UHGV virus genome: UHGV-0185078
DNA length: 59,749 nt
Source of the DNA: a virus
Reading direction: 5' to 3' (one strand)
How positions within the stretch are numbered: position 1 is the stretch's first letter; every line of letters begins with the position of its first letter. The translations under genes were made by a program, and so were the position numbers. The notes under the pieces are model-generated. The model was given only the letters and a program-made list of their open reading frames with translations. It ran no database searches and was not told where the DNA came from. This document shows positions 6,971 to 44,219 of the stretch, in pieces.

Positions 6971-9900
6971 TGCCACCAGCAATAATTGGAGCAGCGATAG
7001 CTTTAGGTGCGTCGGCTGCTGCTGCGGCTAGTATTATTTCGGCTACTACCGCTCTCGTTATCGGTATTGCTGCAACTGCGGCAGGTGCTCTTTTAACTAA
7101 GACACCAAATATGAACTTTGATGCTTACAAGGGGCAGCAAGAGCGTAAACAGGTTCTGCGTGCGGCTACAGCGTCACGCTCTGTTGTATATGGCACGACC
7201 GTAGCGTCCGGACTATTAGCATTTGCGGAGGAAGAAGCTGGAGAACAAGATGAAGGTGAATGGATGCATCTTGTTGTTGTTCTTGCTAGTCATAAATTGG
7301 AAGGTATTGAAACAATTTGGTTGGGTGATGACGGAATTGATTGGTTTGGTGAAAACGCTACTTGGGAGTTTCATAACGACCGTCAGACTGTTGACCCATT
7401 CATGTTAAGACATTGTCCTTCCTGGAAGGAGGATATGATTGGCAAGGGTATTGCATGGCTACGTTTAAGCTTAAAGTTTGATGCTGAAAAATTCCCATCA
7501 GGTTTGCCAAACGTCAAGGTGTTGAAAAAGGGACGTAGAGTCTATGACCCACGTTCCGGTCAAACTGTCTTTAGCGATAATGCTGCTCTTGTTATTCTTG
7601 ATTATTTCCGCACGTATTTAAAGCGCAAGGACGAGAATATCAACTGGGACCAATTCAAGGAAGCTGCTAACATCTGCGATGAGTTTGTTACTAACGCAGA
7701 TAACACTACGGAAAGACGTTACCGCATTAACGGTGAGTTTGAAGTGGATGAAGCACCTGCCAAAATCCTTGATGCTATGCTTGAAGCTTGCGGCGGGGAG
7801 CTTACCTATATTGGTGGTAAACACGGTCTGTTAGTTGGTGCTTATTACGGTCCAGCTACCATGACTCTGGATGAAAGCTGCATTGCTGGGGACATTAAGA
7901 TTATCCCTGAGACATCTTATAAAGAACGCACCAATACCATTACAGGTACATTTGTTGACCCGAAGCAAACATACGCTGAAGCAGATTTTCCTCCAGTTGT
8001 GGTTAAGGAATGGGTGGAAAAAGATGGCGGCGAAATAACGCAAGACATGGATTTCCGCTTCGTTACAAGTGAATATCAAGCGCAACGGCTCGCTAATATT
8101 ATTTTACGTCGTAAGCGTGTTGGTCGAACAATTGAAGTGCCATGTAACATGAAGGGGTATAAATTCCGCCCGGGCATGTATGTTAACGTAACAATTTCAA
8201 ATATTGGAATGAAAAATGTTGAGATGCGCGTTACTAAATGGTCATTCGATCCTAAAGGTGGGATTAATCTTGTCCTTCGTCAAGACTTCCTGGAAATGTG
8301 GGACGACGCTATTGGTAAACCAATGGAGCGCCCGGATCTGGTAGACCTCCCGTCTGGTGCTATTGCTCAACCGCAAAACCTTCAGTATCAGGCATTGCAG
8401 ATTAGCGATGTTGTGCAGGGTGTTTTAACGTGGAGCAATATTGGACAGGTAGCGTATAACCGCGTAGCCGTGCGACAGGGAGGTACAACGGTTTGGACCG
8501 CACAAGTCCCTGGCCAAAACGTTCGCGTTACTGGGTTGCTGCGGGGCGCGTATACAGCACATGTTCAAGCGGTAGCCTATAGTGGGGCGGTATCACCGGA
8601 AGCGTATCTGGAATTTAATATTCAAGCTCCACCTCCTCCAACGTCTATTGAAGTGCAACAAGGTTACTTTGCAATAAGTCTAATCCCTAAATCCGCGGAT
8701 ATTGCAAACGTTAGCACGCAATATGATTTCTGGACGTCCGGTGAAACAAGATTGTCTTCCGTGTCTACAGATATTGTGGAACGCGAAGCGACTCGTAAAG
8801 GTATGGGTACAACATGGACTTCAGAAGGTTTGAAGAATGGCCACACTTACTACTGGTATGTTCGCACTATTAACGCTTTTGGATCGTCTGCATTTGTAGA
8901 GGTTGCTGCATTGTGTTTCACAACAGCTACAGACTTAATGCCACAGATTGATTCTGAGTTCAAGAAGACGGAGACTTATAAAGAGCTTACTGCTGAAATT
9001 ACAGGTGTTAAAGACGGTGTTACACAACTCAGTCAAACTGTAGTAGACACAGAAAAGCGTTTAAGTCAAAGTGTTAGCAACGTTCAGCAAAGCGTTATTA
9101 CTTTGGACGGCGTTGTTCAAGATCAGGGTGTTACCATCAACGAACAGGGGCAACTCATTGATGCACAGGGTCGATTAATTGATACGCAAGGTAAAACTAT
9201 TCAGCAAGTCAGCGCCACTGTACAGGAAACAAGTAAAGCAGTCGTAGATCTGGAAGGTAATGTTAACGCGCAATGGGGTGCTAAGGTACAGGTTGACAGT
9301 AAAGGGCAAAAATACGTTGCTGGTATCCAGTTGGGTATGGAAGGTTCAGGCGGTGCTGTACAATCTTACTTCATGGTGAGCGCTAACAACTTTGCTATCT
9401 ATAACCCGACAAACAGCGTAGCAGAATTGGCATTTGCTGTTAAGAACGGTCAAGTGTTCATGAAGGCTGCATTTATTGAAAATGGTACAATTGACAGCGC
9501 TAAAATTTCAAACCAGATTCAGTCAACAAACTACGCTAGCAATAGCGCGGGTTGGATGATCAACAAGAACGGTAGCGCTCAGTTTAACAACGTGACGGTA
9601 CGGGGTACGGTATACGCTAACAACGGATCTTTCACAGGAACAGTGAACGCAACAAGCGGTAAATTCAAGGGTACTGTGGAAGCTACCAGTTTTGTGGGTG
9701 ATGTCGCGAATATGTGTGTCATTGCTGAGTCTGCAATACCAAACACACAAACTACAAGTTCAAGAACCTGGACAAAAACTTTCAAAGACTCATCTGGTTC
9801 AACATTATCTAAAGACTTTGTGTTGTTATTAAGTTATAGTTTAACCGCATATACATCAAATCAGGCAAGTCGTATAATTGTGACTGCTAACATAGGTGGA

Positions 9901-10092
9901 ACATCAATAACAAGGAGGATTGAGCGAGCTGCCAATGGGCCTGCTATGGATGTAACCATACCTTTAGCAGTGAAAGGAAAGACAGCGTCGAGGGTAACAA
10001 TAAGCGTTAAGGAGGAATATACGAATGTCTATGGGAGTTACTTGCGTCCGTCTGTAATATTAATGACTCGCGGAACTGGTAGTTGGTCGTAA
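6970..10092 (+). CDS. tail tip / host specificity protein (lambda I+J-like)
   Basis: 1040 aa from ATG 6970 (GGAGGG RBS 4 nt upstream); hydrophobic Ala/Gly-rich N-terminus, large central body; position after M/L/K-like genes. Confidence 0.75.
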   Translation: MPPAIIGAAIALGASAAAAASIISATTALVIGIAATAAGALLTKTPNMNFDAYKGQQERKQVLRAATASRSVVYGTTVASGLLAFAEEEAGEQDEGEWMHLVVVLASHKLEGIETIWLGDDGIDWFGENATWEFHNDRQTVDPFMLRHCPSWKEDMIGKGIAWLRLSLKFDAEKFPSGLPNVKVLKKGRRVYDPRSGQTVFSDNAALVILDYFRTYLKRKDENINWDQFKEAANICDEFVTNADNTTERRYRINGEFEVDEAPAKILDAMLEACGGELTYIGGKHGLLVGAYYGPATMTLDESCIAGDIKIIPETSYKERTNTITGTFVDPKQTYAEADFPPVVVKEWVEKDGGEITQDMDFRFVTSEYQAQRLANIILRRKRVGRTIEVPCNMKGYKFRPGMYVNVTISNIGMKNVEMRVTKWSFDPKGGINLVLRQDFLEMWDDAIGKPMERPDLVDLPSGAIAQPQNLQYQALQISDVVQGVLTWSNIGQVAYNRVAVRQGGTTVWTAQVPGQNVRVTGLLRGAYTAHVQAVAYSGAVSPEAYLEFNIQAPPPPTSIEVQQGYFAISLIPKSADIANVSTQYDFWTSGETRLSSVSTDIVEREATRKGMGTTWTSEGLKNGHTYYWYVRTINAFGSSAFVEVAALCFTTATDLMPQIDSEFKKTETYKELTAEITGVKDGVTQLSQTVVDTEKRLSQSVSNVQQSVITLDGVVQDQGVTINEQGQLIDAQGRLIDTQGKTIQQVSATVQETSKAVVDLEGNVNAQWGAKVQVDSKGQKYVAGIQLGMEGSGGAVQSYFMVSANNFAIYNPTNSVAELAFAVKNGQVFMKAAFIENGTIDSAKISNQIQSTNYASNSAGWMINKNGSAQFNNVTVRGTVYANNGSFTGTVNATSGKFKGTVEATSFVGDVANMCVIAESAIPNTQTTSSRTWTKTFKDSSGSTLSKDFVLLLSYSLTAYTSNQASRIIVTANIGGTSITRRIERAANGPAMDVTIPLAVKGKTASRVTISVKEEYTNVYGSYLRPSVILMTRGTGSWS

Positions 10093-10098
10093 TAAATA

Positions 10099-10127
10099 AT
10101 TAACCCCTCGTTTGAGGGGTTAATTTT
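10099..10127. terminator. bidirectional rho-independent terminator between J-like gene and lipoprotein gene
   Basis: Perfect inverted repeat attaacccctc-gttt-gaggggttaat flanked by A/T runs on both sides. Confidence 0.7.
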
Positions 10128-10360
10128 CAATAATCAATTACACAGTTTGAAGGTGAACCAATTCGTCGGTATTCATGATCAATCTCATGGCACCATTGTC
10201 CAGTCATTGGAAGCTTTTCGGTATCATAAATTAAAGAACCGTTACCATCACGATCTAACGGTTTTGGAATTACGCCGGAATTAGGTTTACCAGTATTTAA
10301 ACCGTTACCACATGCAGTGAGGGATAAAGTTAATGCCAGCATAATTAAAGCGCGTTTCAT
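10127..10360 (-). CDS. small lipoprotein, candidate superinfection-exclusion protein (Cor/Llp-like)
   Basis: 77 aa, MKRALIMLALTLSLTAC signal peptide with lipobox L-T-A-C; GGAG RBS; antisense to flanking tail genes and bracketed by terminator and intergenic promoter region. Confidence 0.6.
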   Translation of the reverse strand: MKRALIMLALTLSLTACGNGLNTGKPNSGVIPKPLDRDGNGSLIYDTEKLPMTGQWCHEIDHEYRRIGSPSNCVIDY

Positions 10361-13571: not shown

Positions 13572-13700
13572 TTGGCTGTCAATCCTGATTTACAAAATCT
13601 TTACATATGGATCATTGTAAAAAGCATGTTAAGGGGTATGCTTTACTTCGTAACCAGTTGGTTACATCCGCTTAACAAATCCATATATGGAGATTTTCCT

Positions 13701-14408
13701 ATGTCTGACATGACTCTTTTACCTACTAATCTCGGTGGCGACGGTTTCGGCGGTGAAGCTGGTGCGGCTGGTATCGGTGGCGCGATCGGTGGCTTAATTG
13801 GTTCCTGGATCGGTAATGGTTGGGGTGGCAATGGTGGTTGGGGTGGTCGCGGTAACTTCGCTGGCCCGGTGGAAGTGCAAGCTTCTGTTGACACCAACGC
13901 AATTCTGCAAGCTATCAACAACGGTACTCTTCAGACCATTCAGGGGCAGAACGGTACTAACCTGACTGTTGAGCGCTCCGCTGCTTCTACCTATAACGGC
14001 ATCACTCAGCAGAACACTCAGAACATGCTGGCTTCCGTTCAGGGCTTTGCTGGTCTGAACACGCAAATTCAGGGTGGCACCAGCCAAGTGCTCGCGGCTC
14101 TGTGTAGCAACGAAGCGGCTAACATTACCCGTTCTTTCCAGGCCCAGTTAGCAGCCGAGAAGTGTTGCTGCGAAACCAACCTGAACATCGAGCGTCAAGC
14201 TGAAGCTACCCGTGCGCTAATCCGTGACCAGCACGCACAGGCGCAAGCAGTTCTGATCTGTGACCTGAAATCTCAGTTGCAGGAAGCTCGCTTTGCAAAC
14301 TCTCAGTTGGCACAAACGGCTGGTCTTACTTGTAAGATCAATCAGGTTGAGCAGTTAGTTAACTTTAAACTGCCAACTCCTCCAACTCCTCCGACTGGCT
14401 GCTGCTAA
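13701..14408 (+). CDS. glycine-zipper / Cys-cluster protein of unknown function (possible fiber-associated adhesin)
   Basis: ATG 13701 after GGAGA RBS; N-terminal GGDGFGGEAGAAGIGGAIGGLIGSWIGNGWGGNGGWGG, Gln/Asn/Thr-rich middle, CCC motif and C-terminal PTPPTPPTGCC. Confidence 0.55.
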   Translation: MSDMTLLPTNLGGDGFGGEAGAAGIGGAIGGLIGSWIGNGWGGNGGWGGRGNFAGPVEVQASVDTNAILQAINNGTLQTIQGQNGTNLTVERSAASTYNGITQQNTQNMLASVQGFAGLNTQIQGGTSQVLAALCSNEAANITRSFQAQLAAEKCCCETNLNIERQAEATRALIRDQHAQAQAVLICDLKSQLQEARFANSQLAQTAGLTCKINQVEQLVNFKLPTPPTPPTGCC

Positions 14409-25269: not shown

Positions 25270-25522
25270 TTCTTTTCACCTTCACTAATGTTTGTTTATA
25301 ATCCATACCTTCAAGGTCAACTTCTGCCATTTCACAAAAGTTATTATCTTCCCAGTATGGTGTCCATTCAGTTTCACCATCCCTCAATGTTGGCTCATAC
25401 TCGAATCCGTAAACTGTACCGTCTTGATCCGTAGCCATCCACCGTACCCATTCAGGGACATCAATCTTATTGCCAAAGTATTCAACTTCTTTAGTATGCA
25501 CAACCTGACTTAACACACGCAT
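25223..25522 (-). CDS. hypothetical acidic protein inside deazaguanine cluster
   Basis: 99 aa ORF, start overlaps queE stop. Confidence 0.4.
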   Translation of the reverse strand: MRVLSQVVHTKEVEYFGNKIDVPEWVRWMATDQDGTVYGFEYEPTLRDGETEWTPYWEDNNFCEMAEVDLEGMDYKQTLVKVKRNDHFGRSETASGNDH

Positions 25523-26229
25523 TATTCCACCCCGATATATTTGTGAACCTGAAGCTGCAACGTGTACCCGTGTTTCATACAGCTTTGGACAACCGCTTGG
25601 ATGTTACTGTGGTTAAGATCTTCATCCTGCTCGTCCATTGGCTGTAAATATATCTTACCCTTGAACCCCTTCGGAGGTCTAGCGATAAATGGCGTAGCTT
25701 GATGATCTAATGCTTGAAGAGGTAAACCATCTTCCACGTTTACACAGCACGCTTTAAGTACATATTTAAATGCATTAGCGCGGTAAAGCACAGAAGGATG
25801 AATCTTTGAGGTCTTGGGACTACATACAATCACAGGCAACTGGGAAAAGTTCTTAGGTAAAGGCATAGACCCATTAGTTTCGATTTGCACCAAATAGCCC
25901 CGCGATAACAGTTGTTCAATAAACGGGTTAATTTGCTGACGGAACGGTTCACCCCCAGTAATAACCACAAGTGAGGTGCTATTGCCTGATTCCAGCTTAC
26001 GGCTTTCGATTAAACGCATGATATCAACAATGTGGTAAAGAGAACGACCAACAGTATAATCCGTGTCGCAGCCCGGGCATTGTAGGTTACATCCAGCAAG
26101 ACGCACAAATACAGCAGGTTGGCCGCAGAATGGCCCTTCACCCTGAATGGTAGAGAATACCGAATGCACGTCTAAATACATATCGTTTTCTTTAGAACGA
26201 GACTCGGGAGCTTGTTGATTAATATTCAT
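25522..26229 (-). CDS. queE: 7-carboxy-7-deazaguanine synthase (radical SAM)
   Basis: 235 aa; radical-SAM Cys triad CNLQCPGCDT; AGAGGA RBS. Confidence 0.9.
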   Translation of the reverse strand: MNINQQAPESRSKENDMYLDVHSVFSTIQGEGPFCGQPAVFVRLAGCNLQCPGCDTDYTVGRSLYHIVDIMRLIESRKLESGNSTSLVVITGGEPFRQQINPFIEQLLSRGYLVQIETNGSMPLPKNFSQLPVIVCSPKTSKIHPSVLYRANAFKYVLKACCVNVEDGLPLQALDHQATPFIARPPKGFKGKIYLQPMDEQDEDLNHSNIQAVVQSCMKHGYTLQLQVHKYIGVE

Positions 26230-26245: not shown

Positions 26246-26274
26246 AAAAAGAAGGCGCCCCATTGGGCGCCTTC
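26246..26274 (-). terminator. rho-independent terminator upstream of queE
   Basis: 10-bp perfect stem gaaggcgccc/gggcgccttc, 4-nt loop, then ttttt on the minus strand. Confidence 0.7.
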
Positions 26275-26298
26275 ATTATAACGTGATATGTTTTGATA

Positions 26299-27102
26299 TT
26301 ACAAGCCGTTCAGGGCTTCCGGTACTGGTACAGGTACGCGACCAGTCACACCATTAAATTTCTTCCAGCGTGCATACTGGGTTTTAACAGTATCTTCGTT
26401 CAGACCGTGACGACCAGCCAGGTTCAGAACATAAGAGATCGGAGCAGGCTGGCCCAGCGTAGCGCTAATCTGGTCCATCAGAGCCCAGGCACGACCGCAG
26501 GAAGTTTCCGGTTGCGGACGGCGAACACCGTTCTGTTCCGGCATACGATTAGCTTCTTTTTCTTTCTCGCGGAGCTCTTTAGCGCGCGCTTTTTCCGCTT
26601 CTTTTTCTGCCTGTTTTGCAGCACGGATCTTGTCTTTGAAGCCTTTAATAGTAGATTCCAGTTCGTCGACCATGCTCTGAGCAGCAGTCACTGCACCGGA
26701 CAGATCTTCACCTTTGGATTTTTTAACAACTGCTTTCAGATCTTTCAGAGCATTCTTTAAATGCTTCAGCTGTTCAGAACCCTTAGATTCTGCTTCCGTA
26801 ATCTGTTCAACAGTGCTTTCATCGGTAATACCGGATAAAGCAAACTTCACGGTTTCAACTGCCTGGGAAAGAGCGGTAAATTTGTTTTCCGCTTCAGCGC
26901 GGATTTCAGCTTGTTTCTTTTCAGCGGCAGCTTTTTTCTCTGCTTCTTTTTTCTCTTTTGCTACGCGTGCAGCTTCAGCAGCAGCGGCTTTCTTAGCTTC
27001 TGCGTCATTCACAGTAGCTTCTTTCTTTGCAGGTTTAGCAGATTTTGCGGCGGCAGCGGCAGCGGCTGCGGCAGCAGCTTTTTTGTCTTCAATGTTGCTC
27101 AT
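26299..27102 (-). CDS. Lys/Ala-rich histone H1-like protein with conserved C-terminal domain
   Basis: ATG 27102 with GGAG RBS; poly-Ala run and KKAAAE repeats; C-terminal WALMDQISATLGQPAP...YARWKKFNG paralogous to C-terminus of ORF 43605-44219. Confidence 0.55.
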   Translation of the reverse strand: MSNIEDKKAAAAAAAAAAAKSAKPAKKEATVNDAEAKKAAAAEAARVAKEKKEAEKKAAAEKKQAEIRAEAENKFTALSQAVETVKFALSGITDESTVEQITEAESKGSEQLKHLKNALKDLKAVVKKSKGEDLSGAVTAAQSMVDELESTIKGFKDKIRAAKQAEKEAEKARAKELREKEKEANRMPEQNGVRRPQPETSCGRAWALMDQISATLGQPAPISYVLNLAGRHGLNEDTVKTQYARWKKFNGVTGRVPVPVPEALNGL

Positions 27103-27229
27103 TCTCTTCACTCCGAATTGTTATGGGTTCGTTTGTTACCAACGGGGTTAAATGTACCAAAGGATTTTGTGACACGCAACCCCTTATCTGAACATTTTTA
27201 AAAATATTTTTGATCAAGCTTAGAACTTA

Positions 27230-27724
27230 CTAGCTCTTTGCCCCTCTGCCCGGCGTCCATGCAGCTTGCAATGCGGGTTGCTCACAAACAACCCTGGCAC
27301 CGGAAATAATACCACCCTCCCGTTCAGCATCGTATTTGACACGGGCAGGTTTCCAAAGTCCTTCATCCATTGACGGAACGTATTGCCCAATTTGAGGTGA
27401 GCAAAAGCCTTGGATATCGTATTCCACACAGAATTCAGCTTGTGCGCTGATTTGGGCGTGATCCAGGATTGTTTCTGGAAGTTGCGTAAAGTAATCAAAC
27501 AAAATGCGCTCAACGATTTCCCGTTCATAAGGTGCAGCTCCTAAATTTTCTGTCAAGTTAATATAAAGCATTTGAAGATCAACATCTTCAAGATCGTGTA
27601 AATCGTCCACTGGTGTTACCAGTGTTGACTCCGGACAACAAATAATTCCAAGTTGGTGTAGTGTCAGCCAATTGGGATGCTTTGCCAAGAGCTCAAATTT
27701 ATCTGTATCAATTAGGACGTACAT
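27230..27724 (-). CDS. hypothetical acidic protein
   Basis: 164 aa; AGGGGA RBS 5 nt upstream of ATG. Confidence 0.45.
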   Translation of the reverse strand: MYVLIDTDKFELLAKHPNWLTLHQLGIICCPESTLVTPVDDLHDLEDVDLQMLYINLTENLGAAPYEREIVERILFDYFTQLPETILDHAQISAQAEFCVEYDIQGFCSPQIGQYVPSMDEGLWKPARVKYDAEREGGIISGARVVCEQPALQAAWTPGRGAKS

Positions 27725-27783: not shown

Positions 27784-29763
27784 TTAGAACGGAACGTAAT
27801 CCGGATCATCTACTTGCACAGGATTAACCACATTGTTCACCGTTATGCCTTGCGTATTCTGTGAAACAATATCATCCCAGCTCACATCATCATTGTTATA
27901 GCTCGGACCTTCTGTTGTTCCATCCTGCCCGTATACTTTAACCTGAATAGCTTCGTCGTCCTGTGGTGCTTCAAACTTACCGAAACACGTACCATCATAA
28001 TCATAGTTCAATATCTCAGGCCATTTCTTATTGGTATGAACTTTGATGTATTTCGGTGTTTTAAGCATTGCAGCAACATCAAGGGCTTCTTCAATAGTTT
28101 GTGGTAAAGGAAGATGCGTCCTTTTCTTCCACCATGCAACCGCTTTACGACCTGCCCAGTCACCATGAAGCAGAGCTACCCATTCGCTGAATATTTTACT
28201 ACCGCAATAATAAGTCACCTTCATTGTTGGAGGTTTGGAGCTGTCATTGCGTTTAGTGTGCTTCGCATAAGTGACATGCGTAACTTTAAAGTCTTCAACT
28301 ACCGGAATGTCTTGCTTGATTAAAGCTTCGGTACTTGCTGCCTTTTTAAGTTTTGTCTGGAACTTAAACTCATGACCGCAAAATCCTTCTTTAACATAAT
28401 CCGTTCCACGTAGTCTGAATCCCTTCAAATACAATTGTTGAACTTGTTCCTGTGTAACGCTGTCCATAGGAATTGGTGCAAAGCCACCGCAATAGCGAGC
28501 AGATGCATGATTATACGACCCGCACACATCGCATTCTTTAACCGGAGCAGTACCAGCACCTTTTTCGCCCGGGCGCTTGGGTTTAACAGGGTCGTTAATA
28601 GGGCCCAAACGACGCGTATTACCGCTGAAATCCAGTACAAGGCAGTTCTGCTTAGGGCTTGCTGCAATAGCTTGCAAGCGACCTTCCTGCGTGGAAAGAT
28701 CAAAGCCCTCCGCATATACCGGACGCGTACCGCGACCCAACATCTGAACCCATAGCACTGCCGAGGCAGTGGGGCGAAGCATAATAATTAGATCAAGCAT
28801 CGGATGGTCGAACCCTGTGGTTAAGACGTTGTTGTTCGTCAGCGCTCGAAACTCTCCACGCTTGAATTTTTCAATAATTTCATCACGCTCTTTTGCATCA
28901 AGCTTTGAGTGAATACATCCGCAACTAATACCCATATCGTTCAGCATATCACACGCATCTTTAGCGTGTTCAATACCAGAACAAAATATAAGCCAGCTTT
29001 GACGGTCTTCACCACATTCAATGGCTTCCTCAAGTGCGCGGAGTGTTGCGTCGTCGCGGTTCACTGCACTTTGCAGCTCACTCTGAATAAACTCACCGCC
29101 GCGTTTACCTACCCCGTTGAGGTCCAGTTCCATCTTTGTACGCTTTGGCACAACCGGAAGCAAATAACCTTGCTCCAGGAACCAGTTAAAGGCTTCAGGA
29201 GTAGTCGCATCAAACGTTACTTTATCAAATAAAGCATCATCGTCTTCGTTTTCCTTAACAATTGAGCCGTAACCCAGTCGATAAGGTGTAGCGGTAAGAC
29301 CGATAATTTTTAAATACGGGTTAACTTCACGCAATGCTGCAAAGAACTTCTTATACATTGTTGCATCACGCGGACTAATAAGGTGCGCTTCATCCACAAA
29401 GATTAGATCAACCTTGCCGAACTTTTTAGGATGCTTAGCAACGGATGCAATCCCCGCAAATGTGATAAGATTATAAACTTCTTTACGCTTCAAACCTGCA
29501 CTGTAAATACCTGCTGGCGCTTCAGGCCAGACTTTCATTAATTTATCATAGTTTTGCGCGATCAACTCTTTGACGTGAGTTAACATCATTACGCGCTGGT
29601 TTGGATACCATTTATAAAGCAGATCGAGGAACCCCGCGATAACGAGCGATTTTCCTGTCCCTGTTGGTAACAGGATCAAAGGGTTCCCCGCGTTACCCTT
29701 TTCAGCATCAAAATAGCGGAATACGCTATAAACTGCTTCCTGTTGATAATCGCGGAGCTGCAT
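27784..29763 (-). CDS. SF2 DEAD/DEAH-box DNA helicase
   Basis: Motif I LLPTGTGKS, motif II FVDEAH, motif III LTATP, motif VI QMLGRGTR; start taken at ATG 29763 (track start is TTG). Confidence 0.85.
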   Translation of the reverse strand: MQLRDYQQEAVYSVFRYFDAEKGNAGNPLILLPTGTGKSLVIAGFLDLLYKWYPNQRVMMLTHVKELIAQNYDKLMKVWPEAPAGIYSAGLKRKEVYNLITFAGIASVAKHPKKFGKVDLIFVDEAHLISPRDATMYKKFFAALREVNPYLKIIGLTATPYRLGYGSIVKENEDDDALFDKVTFDATTPEAFNWFLEQGYLLPVVPKRTKMELDLNGVGKRGGEFIQSELQSAVNRDDATLRALEEAIECGEDRQSWLIFCSGIEHAKDACDMLNDMGISCGCIHSKLDAKERDEIIEKFKRGEFRALTNNNVLTTGFDHPMLDLIIMLRPTASAVLWVQMLGRGTRPVYAEGFDLSTQEGRLQAIAASPKQNCLVLDFSGNTRRLGPINDPVKPKRPGEKGAGTAPVKECDVCGSYNHASARYCGGFAPIPMDSVTQEQVQQLYLKGFRLRGTDYVKEGFCGHEFKFQTKLKKAASTEALIKQDIPVVEDFKVTHVTYAKHTKRNDSSKPPTMKVTYYCGSKIFSEWVALLHGDWAGRKAVAWWKKRTHLPLPQTIEEALDVAAMLKTPKYIKVHTNKKWPEILNYDYDGTCFGKFEAPQDDEAIQVKVYGQDGTTEGPSYNNDDVSWDDIVSQNTQGITVNNVVNPVQVDDPDYVPF

Positions 29764-29765
29764 AA

Positions 29766-30674
29766 TCAATCTTTCCCGTAATAGTTAGCTACTTGATAGT
29801 TTTGACAACCAACTTTTTGACCCTGAGTATCTACTGCAACGGAATGGAAATTGCAATACCATGTTCCATCATCTTTTGGCTCAAGAAATTGACATGTGCG
29901 ACAGTTTACTTCCGGCATAGTTTTACGCCAGCACAATGAGGAGTGGTCGCACCATTTGCATTCGAAGAAGGTAGAGTCTTTGAATGCACGGTCAGGAATA
30001 TCCGTAGCAATAGCAATCTGCACACCACGATCAATATACATGTCCGCAGTGACCGGATCAAATGGAATAATTTCTGCGTAAACTTCATCATCGTTCTTGT
30101 TTACAGCAAGATATAACGCTGCGCCAAGTCCAAGCTTTCGCATGTACACGTTCATTTGCACATAGTGCTCAGGTTTAGCTTCTTTGACACCTTTAGCTTT
30201 CAGCTTCTTGAAAGACTTATCGTTGTGGGTCTTCATTTCAGTAAGCACAGGCATCCCAGGCTGAACGTCCGGACAACCTATAACCACACCATCGCAGGAA
30301 CCTCCAAAGTGTCCACCCGCTTCACTGATACGGAACTGGTGTCCGTTTTCATCCTGCTGGTAGACCTGCATACCTGCCGCAAGAAGCATAGCAATGAAAC
30401 GCGCTTCTTCCAGATGTCCGCGGTTAAATAGGCGGAGCTGGCGTCCATCAAATTCTTTACGAGTAGCCCAGCGATACCCGTAGAACAGCTTGCGAGCACA
30501 TTGTTGTCCAATAAGGGAAGCACCTAAGTGACTGCGATTCCCGCTTTCAGGACGATATGCGTCTTCAATTGTGGGAATAACTACGCCGAGATATTTACGG
30601 TAAGTCCCACCCTGATCTTTTTGCACACCGTCATTGATCGCTTGAAGTGTTTTTTCTGCAATATAAATAGCCAT
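29766..30674 (-). CDS. PD-(D/E)XK exonuclease with C-terminal Cys cluster (RecB/Cas4-like)
   Basis: GSCDGVV...LTEMKT D/ExK core; CKWCDHSSLC...CRTCQF...WYC cysteine cluster. Confidence 0.6.
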   Translation of the reverse strand: MAIYIAEKTLQAINDGVQKDQGGTYRKYLGVVIPTIEDAYRPESGNRSHLGASLIGQQCARKLFYGYRWATRKEFDGRQLRLFNRGHLEEARFIAMLLAAGMQVYQQDENGHQFRISEAGGHFGGSCDGVVIGCPDVQPGMPVLTEMKTHNDKSFKKLKAKGVKEAKPEHYVQMNVYMRKLGLGAALYLAVNKNDDEVYAEIIPFDPVTADMYIDRGVQIAIATDIPDRAFKDSTFFECKWCDHSSLCWRKTMPEVNCRTCQFLEPKDDGTWYCNFHSVAVDTQGQKVGCQNYQVANYYGKD

Positions 30675-30739: not shown

Positions 30740-31624
30740 TTACTGCTGCCACGGCGGGACTGCTGCTTGTGCCGGATGGGGTTCAGCTTGCTGCTGTGGC
30801 TGCGCTTGCTGCTGCGGTGCTGCTGCCTGGCCCGGCTGCGCTACCTGTTGCGCCCACGGTTGCTGAGCTGCTTCCGGCGCTACTGGTTGTTGTACCGGAG
30901 CTTGCTGAACTGGCTGCTGTGGCGCTGCGTTTTGAGCAGGGTTATCCCACGGCTGCGGTGCAGCATTCTGCCACGGTTGAGCTGCTGCGCCCTGCTGCGG
31001 TGCTGGTTGCTGCTGCACAGGCTGCTGAACTGGCTGCTGTTGCTGTACCGGAGCTTGCTGCTGTACAGGCGCTTGCTGTTGCTGAGCAAACGGGTTAGCT
31101 GCTGACTGCTGTGGCGCTGCGCCTGGGAAAGTCGGTTGCTGTGCTGGCGCACCTGCACCAAACGGGTTAGCTACTGCTGGAGCACCCATTGATGGAGCCT
31201 CTGCTGCTTTTTCTGCATATTTAACCGGATCGTTGATGTTAGCGTAACCGTTAGGCTCGTTGCTGTCTTCATAACCTTCCTGAGAACGAACTTTCAGACG
31301 CAGGTTCAGCGGAATGTTATGCAGTTGCGCAGGAGTATCCCAGCGAATTACACCAACTGCATGAGACAGAGCGCCCAGTTGCTCGTAAGCGATACGCACA
31401 GTATCTTCGTTGTCATTGATGACGTTATAACGAGCAAAGATTTTACGCCCTTTAGCAAAACCGTCAATGATGCTAAACGTTGCCTGGATCGCCATACCGC
31501 CATTTTTGGTCGGTTTAAATTCAGATGCTTCAATTACTGCTTTATACCAACCTTTCGGCAATGCGCCGTAAGAAGGTGCTTGATAGCTGCTCGCGTCAAA
31601 GTGGAAATTAGTTGGCATAGTCAT
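30740..31624 (-). CDS. putative ssDNA-binding protein with long Gln/Pro/Ala-rich C-terminal tail
   Basis: 294 aa; N-terminal globular part then about 160 aa of A/P/Q low complexity with PWQ/PWD repeats ending PPWQQ; adjacent to Sak4-like ATPase. Confidence 0.45.
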   Translation of the reverse strand: MTMPTNFHFDASSYQAPSYGALPKGWYKAVIEASEFKPTKNGGMAIQATFSIIDGFAKGRKIFARYNVINDNEDTVRIAYEQLGALSHAVGVIRWDTPAQLHNIPLNLRLKVRSQEGYEDSNEPNGYANINDPVKYAEKAAEAPSMGAPAVANPFGAGAPAQQPTFPGAAPQQSAANPFAQQQQAPVQQQAPVQQQQPVQQPVQQQPAPQQGAAAQPWQNAAPQPWDNPAQNAAPQQPVQQAPVQQPVAPEAAQQPWAQQVAQPGQAAAPQQQAQPQQQAEPHPAQAAVPPWQQ

Positions 31625-43604: not shown

Positions 43605-44219
43605 TTAAGCGTCCAGGCCGTTGTACTTGCGCCATGCGTAGAACTGGATTGCTACTGTTGTGCCGTTGTAAGAAGGCATTGCAGCTTTCATTTCTTTCAG
43701 CTCAGGTGTACGTCCCAGCTCAGCGAGCAGCTTGTCACCCATTGCCCAAACTTCAGCAGTTTTACCTTTCAGCGGCTTGCGAGCGCCATTTTTAAAATCA
43801 CAGCGAGCAGCTTTTGCATCTTGTTTTGGCGCGGCAGCTTTTGGCTCTTCAATTTTGATTTCAGAAACCTGCGTGGCAGCTTTTGCGTGTTTCATATCTT
43901 TCTCTTCCTCCTGCTCCAGAGCTTCGAGGCAGCTTTTGACGATTTCCGGATTTACCATCGGGCGCAGTACCGAGACGCTAGCAGCAGGCGCGGCGGTCGG
44001 TGCCGGGACTTTCTGCCCCGGCTGTTGCGCTTTTTTATGGTCGCGCAGTACCTGAAGCACTTCCTTCTCGACGATATAAAAACCGATTTCGTCCTGATGG
44101 ATAAGCTGTTCGTGTGCATCGCGTGCAACCTGGCCCCAGCGGGTCTTAAGGGCACGGCGTGCATTCGTTTTCATGGTGTAACGCATTTTGTCCTGTTCGC
44201 GGTGAGTTACTTTAGACAT
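43605..44219 (-). CDS. Lys/Ala/Glu-rich protein with conserved C-terminal domain (paralog of 26299-27102)
   Basis: 204 aa; C-terminal VWAMGDKLLAELGRTPELKEMKAAM...FYAWRKYNG aligns with the C-terminus of ORF 26299-27102. Confidence 0.45.
   Translation of the reverse strand: MSKVTHREQDKMRYTMKTNARRALKTRWGQVARDAHEQLIHQDEIGFYIVEKEVLQVLRDHKKAQQPGQKVPAPTAAPAASVSVLRPMVNPEIVKSCLEALEQEEEKDMKHAKAATQVSEIKIEEPKAAAPKQDAKAARCDFKNGARKPLKGKTAEVWAMGDKLLAELGRTPELKEMKAAMPSYNGTTVAIQFYAWRKYNGLDA

Follow-up and report, generated by a model that had tools for sequence, protein, structure and literature searches.

Two paralogous proteins of a Seuratvirus-type phage with a shared basic C-terminal domain and a putative role in DNA binding

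The two genes described here, designated p1 and p2, lie on the minus strand of the virus genome UHGV-0185078; the whole stretch of DNA that was analysed, 59,749 nucleotides (nt) in length, is referred to below as the window. The products of the two genes have different N-terminal regions and the same small, basic C-terminal domain. As far as can be judged from sequence, DNA binding is the most likely activity of both proteins, because of the basic three-helix fold of the domain, its distant link to a homing-endonuclease-associated repeat, and its fusion in other proteins to SprT-like metalloproteases and to MuF head proteins.

The p1 and p2 proteins and their shared domain

The open reading frame (ORF) that the first-pass annotation, made from the sequence alone, had assigned to p1 proved to be real: it encodes 267 amino acids (aa) on the minus strand and begins with an ATG preceded 9 nt upstream by GGAG (Table 1). 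A GTG at 27111 is the less likely start. The plus-strand ORFs at 26293-26760 and 26714-27151 were considered and rejected as shadows of the conserved, codon-adapted minus-strand gene. The protein is rich in Ala (53 residues, 20%), Lys (37, 14%) and Glu (31, 12%), and its 49 Lys/Arg residues are accompanied by 40 Asp/Glu, giving a net charge of +9 over 267 aa, i.e. that of a polyampholyte. Seventeen basic and 12 acidic residues are found in aa 1-70, for which the isoelectric point (pI) is 9.56, and a Lys/Ala-rich stretch occupies aa 7-27. The poly-Ala tract reported earlier is present at aa 9-19, with 11 residues rather than the 12 originally transcribed, and the KKxAE-like elements are indeed repeated, there being three of them (KKEAE, KKAAAE and KKQAE).

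In the AlphaFold2 model of p1, aa 1-30 are disordered and are followed by helices at aa 33-90, 98-127 and 135-184 (predicted local distance difference test score, pLDDT, >85) and by a compact C-terminal domain. Large hydrophobic residues make up 7% of the charged stretches at aa 33-75 and 159-186, and the region between them, aa 76-158, looks in sequence and model like a folded helical unit specific to the lineage of p1. A match to phrog_18634 spans aa 95-259. The order of charges in the Lys/Glu helices was not significantly more salt-bridge-like than in shuffled sequences (0.33 vs 0.24 ± 0.06), and the idea of a single alpha-helix in p1 therefore stays a possibility only. When the full-length model was compared with the Protein Data Bank (PDB) by fold search, nothing was returned beyond non-significant, generic helical-bundle matches.

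The C-termini of p1 and p2 were aligned by BLASTP with an expectation value (E) of 1e-6 and 30% identity over 69 residues, and their Smith-Waterman score of 80 compares with 22.7 ± 4.3 in shuffled sequences (z 13; 0 of 5000 shuffles reached 80). Both proteins matched phrog_17772 and phrog_21588 through the C-terminal region. By profile they belong to these two groups and to phrog_11298 (p1) and phrog_22313 (p2), all four of which are annotated as 'unknown function'. A six-frame translation of the window searched with the domain profile contained exactly two copies, those of p1 and p2. The earlier proposal of a shared C-terminal domain, of ~70 aa, and of paralogy thus stands, with pairwise and profile alignments far beyond shuffled controls. 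The domain of p2 had also been said to follow a Lys/Ala/Glu-rich region; the region is only moderately rich in these residues, and p2 also possesses an N-terminal module of its own.

Table 1. Coordinates of p1, p2 and adjoining features in the window
Feature	Position	Strand	Basis or remark
p1 coding sequence, 267 aa, stop codon included	26299..27102	-	phrog_11298, E 2e-118
p1 aa 1-32, disordered Lys/Ala head with 11-Ala tract	27007..27102	-	pLDDT <50 for aa 1-30
p1 aa 33-75, Ala/Lys/Glu-rich charged helix with KKxAE elements	26878..27006	-	predicted helix; 37% Ala
p1 aa 76-158, helical, hydrophobic pattern, apparently lineage-specific	26629..26877	-	25% large hydrophobic residues; pLDDT >85
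p1 aa 159-186, Glu/Lys/Arg-rich helical linker	26545..26628	-	AlphaFold2 and composition
p1 aa 185-260, shared C-terminal domain, beta-hairpin and three helices	26323..26550	-	AlphaFold2; profile match, E 5e-42
p2 coding sequence, 204 aa, stop codon included	43605..44219	-	phrog_22313, E 8e-143
p2 aa 139-204, second copy of the domain	43608..43805	-	BLASTP, profile, Smith-Waterman
p2 aa 1-60, N-terminal module with YTxxxNARRA motif	44040..44219	-	motif recurs elsewhere
queE, opening gene of the 7-deazaguanine cassette, next after p1	25522..26229	-	gene order
Terminator-like hairpin between p1 and queE (10 bp stem, 8 GC pairs, T run)	26251..26274	-	also annotated in phage SA80RD
Promoter-like site TTGTAA-18-TATAAT overlapping the p1 stop codon	26275..26304	-	consensus match alone; annotated promoter in SA80RD
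164-aa upstream neighbour, unknown function	27230..27724	-	phrog_7864; conserved partner gene
Superfamily-2 helicase, upstream boundary of the conserved slot	27784..29769	-	gene order

The shared domain was modelled with AlphaFold2 from an alignment of 51 sequences (pLDDT 89.7, predicted template modelling score 0.75). The model consists of a short beta-hairpin (NG-x-RRP) followed by three helices, a three-helix, winged-helix-like fold class with a beta element. In 154 aligned copies of the domain, P13, W23 and W63 are essentially invariant, the net charge has a median of +4.5 and is positive in 98%, and eight positions, located in the hairpin, in helix 3 and in the G-R that follows, are Lys/Arg in at least 70%; a single acidic position is conserved in the whole domain. 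Helix 3 has the consensus T-Q-Y-x-R-W-R-K-F-N-G in these copies and is near invariant across phages of Escherichia, Pseudomonas, Vibrio and Rhizobium. The helix turn conserved in the family is G-x-P, with mostly Q, S or A in the middle position. The GRTP motif that had been thought faintly to recall the DNA-binding loop of H-NS is peculiar to p2; no H-NS match was obtained, and neither the H-NS C-terminal DNA-binding fold nor its Q/RGR minor-groove loop was found.

No Pfam model was found for the shared domain as such. The gathering score of PF18780, the homing-endonuclease-associated repeat (26 bits), was passed by copies of the domain in two MuF proteins, P0135 (27.1 bits) and P0140 (29.1 bits), and weak matches were given by 5 of the 51 domain sequences; p2 reached 14.6 bits (E 0.044), and p1 and p2 both fall short of membership by gathering score. 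From these sequence matches the domain family is read as a divergent branch of the PF18780 superfamily. HNH or homing-endonuclease catalytic domains were found by Pfam in neither p1 nor p2, nor in the best 150 family representatives. A BFVD fold search returned uncharacterised family members only, and NCBIfam contained nothing for p1, p2 or the 164-aa upstream neighbour.

A single-sequence search of a 5.8-billion-protein index with the 83-aa domain returned one protein, and the family became visible when 1.84 billion cluster representatives were searched exhaustively by profile, at least 2041 proteins being matched at E <= 0.001 and 774 at E <= 1e-10; these numbers count clusters at 50% identity and are a lower bound. 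Architectures were surveyed in the best 150 of the 2041 representatives. As a rule the domain forms the C-terminus, behind a region rich in Ala, Lys and Glu (median 62% of these residues). It occurs in two or three tandem copies in P0002 and P0016, and twice in each of the large Phage_Mu_F (SPP1 gp7-type) head proteins P0058, P0135 and P0140, in which an ADP-ribosyltransferase and/or an HExxH metalloprotease-like region is found as well and which would thus be 'polyvalent' ejected proteins. Further fusion partners are a SprT-like metalloprotease (E 1.7e-8), a Rho_N/SAP-like motif (weak match) and a Zn-ribbon-containing module (judged by eye), and in P0013 a p1-like protein is fused to a homologue of the 164-aa upstream protein (E 4e-8). 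Truly basic KKAA tails are found in a minority of the family (P0035, P0024 and P0151). One small domain placed behind so many unrelated modules behaves as a targeting module.

A form of ~140 aa is encoded in the chromosomes of Pseudomonas, Comamonas, Stenotrophomonas and other bacteria, where it lies in small integrative islands together with an integrase, HTH_17, DUF3987 or AAA_25, and DUF5681. The island form resembles p2 more closely in its C-terminal domain (41% identity, E 1e-11) and shares with it the N-terminal YTxxxNARRA motif. As side observations, the YTxxxNA(R/K)RA module of p2 was seen in helicase-proximal phage paralogues (loci L016, L017, L020, L046 and L051), in the island proteins and as stand-alone proteins of 40-105 aa, unannotated everywhere, and a search with the N-terminal module of p2 returned unnamed small proteins and nothing else. 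The islands of Pseudomonas aeruginosa (L089), Comamonas kerstersii (L092) and a metagenome contig (L097) resemble phage satellites, and those of L089 and L097 carry restriction-modification cargo, a HindIII-like or BglII-like enzyme with a methyltransferase.

Gene neighbourhood, conservation and codon adaptation

A 1.4-kb query from the p1 region matched Seuratvirus-type coliphages over its full length at 93-97% nt identity (35 records), the relatives matched being CAjan, Seurat, Skure and SLUR phages (subfamily Queuovirinae). In length the window corresponds to a complete genome of that group. The gene sits in a leftward module for replication and DNA metabolism. In the direction of transcription it is preceded by a Cas4-type exonuclease, an HNH endonuclease, the helicase and the 164-aa protein, and it is followed by queE, small ORFs, queC, a preQ0 transporter, queD, folE, dpdA, a clamp and DNA polymerase. 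In the first-pass annotation p1 headed the DNA-modification region; this is borne out by gene order, with queE next and beginning 70 nt downstream, but p1 and queE are separated by the strong terminator-like hairpin listed in Table 1. The near-consensus promoter-like site just upstream of this terminator stands in an odd order to it, and the pair is annotated in SA80RD too. A scan of the window revealed no relevant multi-copy operator-like repeats.

The same arrangement, with the p1 orthologue after the helicase and directly before queE, was found in six of six annotated phages with genomes of 42-95 kb, whose hosts are Escherichia, Pseudomonas, Vibrio, Rhizobium, Stenotrophomonas and Achromobacter. 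The domain profile was also used to retrieve 80 IMG/VR loci, in which metagenomic synteny was examined. In 78 of them queE lies downstream of the p1 orthologue (median gap 97 nt); of the remaining two loci, one is truncated. Between the helicase and queE, 57 of the 80 loci have two to four genes that encode the domain, and at least 57 have a homologue of the 164-aa neighbour before the p1 orthologue, 12 of these homologues carrying the domain at their own C-terminus. The 164-aa protein of the window matched nothing in Pfam or NCBIfam, and its codon adaptation is low (rank 60 of 65).

Among 78 positional orthologues of p1 the region before the domain has a median length of 94.5 aa and median contents of 73.5% Ala+Lys+Glu, 23.5% basic and 19% acidic residues. 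A (K)TPEQ(I/L)AAE-type motif opens 18 of the 78 (L017, L020, L025, L036, L046, L051 and others); this motif, which the p1 of the window lacks and which might serve for docking, sits on the end of the charged helix opposite the domain.

In a curated phage collection the domain was found in 153 records and full-length DpdA of this type in 155, and the counts per genus correspond closely (domain/DpdA: Escherichia 41/41, Pseudomonas 32/32, Vibrio 24/23, Rhizobium 13/14, Enterobacteria 8/8). Within the same collection the DpdA phages of Mycobacterium, Streptococcus and Cellulophaga gave no match to the domain. The co-occurrence is striking but confounded by descent, because all these phages share one replication backbone. 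One metagenomic locus, L051 (IMG/VR 3300049917_000087), retains exonuclease and helicase along with a paralogue and a p1 orthologue, and the 16 kb examined there contained no match to queE, queC, queD, folE or dpdA. Given this backbone without the cassette, and given the terminator between p1 and queE, p1 was assigned to the backbone and not to the modification cassette. At 8313-10248, L051 has a DUF4406 gene in the cassette slot before the clamp, and a SLOG-family (YAcAr) gene; its polymerase is of family A, not family B, and a different nucleotide or DNA modification could be encoded there.

Codon adaptation was used as a proxy for expression. The codon adaptation index (CAI) was calculated with Sharp-Li E. 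coli codon weights for the 65 ORFs of at least 90 aa (median 0.30). The highest value was that of p1 (0.584), followed by the major head protein (0.548), the SSB-like protein (0.514, third), p2 (0.486, rank 4 of 65) and the scaffold protein (0.482). To control for composition, codons were resampled from the phage's own usage according to the amino-acid composition of each protein; after this correction p1 had a z of 7.5 (rank 3) and p2 a z of 4.7 (rank 7). The genes of high bias are those whose products are needed in stoichiometric amounts, which argues for p1 and p2 as abundant structural or architectural proteins and not as catalytic or regulatory ones. Two other genes drew attention in this comparison. 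A 260-aa protein of phrog_9288, of unknown function, encoded at 13626-14408 on the plus strand, has a corrected z of 8.1, second to the major head protein, and is probably an abundant virion component. The SSB-like gene (30740-31624, minus strand, phrog_6015) contains internal direct repeats of ~120 nt, rich in GCTGCTG, at 30754-31121.

Public records label the p1 orthologue 'transcriptional activator FtrA domain-containing protein', 'putative transcriptional activator' or 'outer capsid protein'. Neither the activator nor the capsid label has the support of a model; for the FtrA label, models of AraC, DJ-1 and FtrA type were unmatched in Pfam and NCBIfam, and the label has been propagated between records.

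Interpretation and alternatives

We tentatively favour the reading that p1 and p2 are abundant DNA-binding proteins of no strong sequence specificity, and that p1 coats, bridges or tethers the intracellular phage DNA. The C-terminal domain would contact nucleic acid through the basic surface of the hairpin, helix 3 and the GR, with little sequence specificity, as we infer from the near invariance of helix 3 across hosts. The long, charged, Ala-rich helices of p1 could serve as a spacer, linker or self-association element between contacts, and p1 at high copy number would coat, bridge or tether replicating phage DNA. The gene p2 lies in the early region, and its product would take another N-terminal module to this target too; across the family the domain would act as a portable 'go to DNA' module on varied N-terminal effectors. 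The paralogy, the fold class, the conserved basic positions, the size and architectures of the family, the synteny and the codon bias are observations; DNA binding, abundance and the architectural role are what the reading adds to them. The family is uncharacterised, widespread and probably highly expressed, and its domain is probably a new variant of the three-helix DNA-binding-type domain.

Several observations weigh against this reading. Literature searches found no functional study of, or experiment on, any family member. No match of p1 to PF18780 was obtained even at E <= 1, and a profile search of PDB sequences returned no related solved structure and one spurious designed cytochrome variant. 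The CAI is no more than a proxy for expression. The near-invariant helix 3 could equally mean one conserved protein partner. A clear coiled-coil core is absent from the charged helices of p1, which leaves its oligomerisation a conjecture.

True homology or close analogy of p1 to histone H1 or Hc1, together with a DNA-binding loop like that of H-NS, is the direction in which the first-pass annotation pointed, and it is very improbable. The Lys/Ala-rich aa 7-27 and the KKxAE elements do recall such proteins, and some family members have strongly basic KKAA tails, one of which (P0035) belongs to a protein with a weak match to the NCBIfam H1-like (Burkholderia) family (E 0.0067, 16.7 bits vs a cut-off of 80). 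Since P0035, P0024 and P0151 carry such tails, the earlier impression was right for part of the family, but not for p1. No linker histone, Hc1, H1-like or H-NS model was matched by p1 (E <= 1 in Pfam, E <= 0.1 in NCBIfam); 40 of its residues are acidic, the pI of aa 1-70 is just 9.56, the charged region is predicted to be helical and not an unstructured basic tail, and GRTP belongs to p2 only. By sequence and predicted fold, the kinship with H1, Hc1 and H-NS is refuted. A site-specific transcription regulator, for example an activator of middle or late genes with the C-terminal domain as helix-turn-helix, is implied by the inherited label 'transcriptional activator', and would suit the three-helix, winged-helix-like fold, the own terminator-flanked unit of p1, the island homologue of ~140 aa that stands alone on the strand opposite replication genes, and the lack of a phage-own RNA polymerase in the regions examined. 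We nevertheless consider it unlikely: codon adaptation of p1 and p2 that equals or tops that of the capsid and SSB-like genes is atypical of a regulator, specific recognition helices normally diverge with their operators whereas helix 3 is near invariant across hosts, the window holds no multi-copy operator-like repeat, and the FtrA label is without Pfam or NCBIfam support. Quite unlikely, too, is a protein-protein adaptor that docks varied N-terminal modules on one conserved partner, for instance part of the replisome or the host RNA polymerase. The domain is found also in MuF proteins, in a SprT-like fusion and in bacterial islands without a phage replication module; the hosts are very diverse, the conserved positions are mostly Lys/Arg, suited to phosphate contacts, and the PF18780 link also points to DNA. 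The adaptor would agree with the strong conservation of the helix 3 surface, with several paralogues of different N-termini that adjoin each other beside the helicase, and with the short N-terminal TPEQIA-type motif that 18 of 78 orthologues have on the charged helix, opposite the domain.

Two further alternatives tie p1 to modified DNA. As a dedicated 7-deazaguanine accessory it would present DNA to DpdA, read or protect dPreQ0-DNA, or shield unmodified new DNA. Its place immediately upstream of queE in 78 of 80 loci and six of six annotated phages, and the near-equal record counts for domain and DpdA (153 vs 155), favour this, and phage DpdA is not known to have a DpdB-like partner comparable to that of the bacterial Dpd system. 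The idea is distinctly doubtful all the same: within the shared replication backbone the helicase and exonuclease co-occur equally well, L051 retains the p1 orthologue with no queE, queC, queD, folE or dpdA in the cassette slot, a strong terminator separates p1 from queE, the DpdA phages of Mycobacterium, Streptococcus and Cellulophaga are without a domain match, and no Que genes lie close to p2, to the MuF fusions or to the bacterial islands. By analogy, p1 might instead be a counterpart of TF1 of phage SPO1, a protein that prefers the hydroxymethyluracil-containing DNA of its phage; co-evolved with the DpdA/preQ0 cassette, p1 would be an abundant protein that coats DNA, with a preference for binding or shielding DNA with 7-deazaguanine or new DNA as yet unmodified, and might hand DNA to DpdA. 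This is rather unlikely. Were it true, p1 might fill the place of DpdB in the bacterial system, and the domain would represent a novel element for reading or handling hypermodified DNA that has been combined repeatedly with protease, toxin and other modules. Finally, p1 could be a virion-internal, DNA-associated protein, packaged and ejected with the genome and, for example, protecting incoming DNA. MuF/SPP1 gp7-type proteins are polyvalent proteins packaged and ejected with the DNA, and the domain is present twice in head proteins of this type. ORF1 of Shewanella phage S0112 (104 aa), a family member in the same position after the helicase, was detected in CsCl-purified virions with three peptides and 33.7% coverage (S0112_001; PMC6893657, Table 4); it was the sole protein from outside the morphogenesis module to be detected and had the lowest score in that table. 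The orthologue is not among the reported virion proteins of Pantoea phage Vid5 (PMC6266253) or Alteromonas phage R7M (PMC8265664), and the tally in relatives is thus one positive vs two negative. With p1 in the replication module and not in the late morphogenesis module, a packaged protein is improbable; the virion data agree with a protein that is very abundant and adheres to DNA, and are not evidence for a regular virion component.

The family deserves attention, being large, conserved across phages of many Proteobacteria, apparently expressed at capsid level, and without a Pfam model or structure, while public records label it 'hypothetical' or, unsupported, 'transcriptional activator'. If p1 is a DNA-handling protein, as favoured above, it would explain the organisation of intracellular phage DNA in a model lineage for 7-deazaguanine modification, define a portable DNA-targeting domain of ejected toxin-carrying head proteins and of satellite-like islands, and put forward a concrete candidate for the partner that phage DpdA is missing. 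An ordinary architectural protein would still make a useful re-annotation.

Comparison with known DNA-binding proteins

With H1, Hc1 and the Burkholderia H1-like proteins p1 shares local Lys/Ala-rich low-complexity sequence; unlike H1 and Hc1, p1 and its orthologues are polyampholytic (medians 23.5% Lys+Arg and 19% Asp+Glu), are predicted to be helical and match none of the corresponding models. In H-NS, MvaT and Lsr2 a helical region for self-association at the N-terminus is joined by a linker to a small, basic DNA-binding domain at the C-terminus; the general plan predicted for p1 is alike, its self-association being conjectural.

Members of PF18780 (HNH_repeat) and the present domain are both helical modules of ~50-70 residues, and both are frequently found in tandem. 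In each, the first two helices are joined by a G-x-P turn, and the last helix has an aromatic or Trp-basic pattern at its end. The p1/p2 family differs in adding the N-terminal NG-x-RRP beta-hairpin and the conserved GR tail, and the function of PF18780 is itself inferred. KfrA of IncP plasmids likewise joins a long, charged alpha-helical stretch rich in alanine to a small helical domain that binds DNA, and the spacing of the G-x-P turn and the Trp-basic helix seems similar by eye. Its order is reversed, the N-terminus binding DNA, and KfrA is a site-specific autoregulator; KfrA_N was matched by neither p1 nor p2, and one paralogue at another locus gave E 0.011 and 16.9 bits vs a cut-off of 26.1.

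In role p1 and p2 would resemble p6 of phage phi29 and TF1, small and very abundant phage-encoded histone-like proteins. For a deazaguanine phage TF1 is the obvious analogue, since its own phage has modified DNA. TF1 belongs to the HU family and p6 has its own fold, and neither is related to p1 or p2 in sequence or fold. The likeness is therefore one of role and not of ancestry: p1 and p2, like p6 and TF1, are small, are made with replication genes and, to judge from codon adaptation, would be very abundant.

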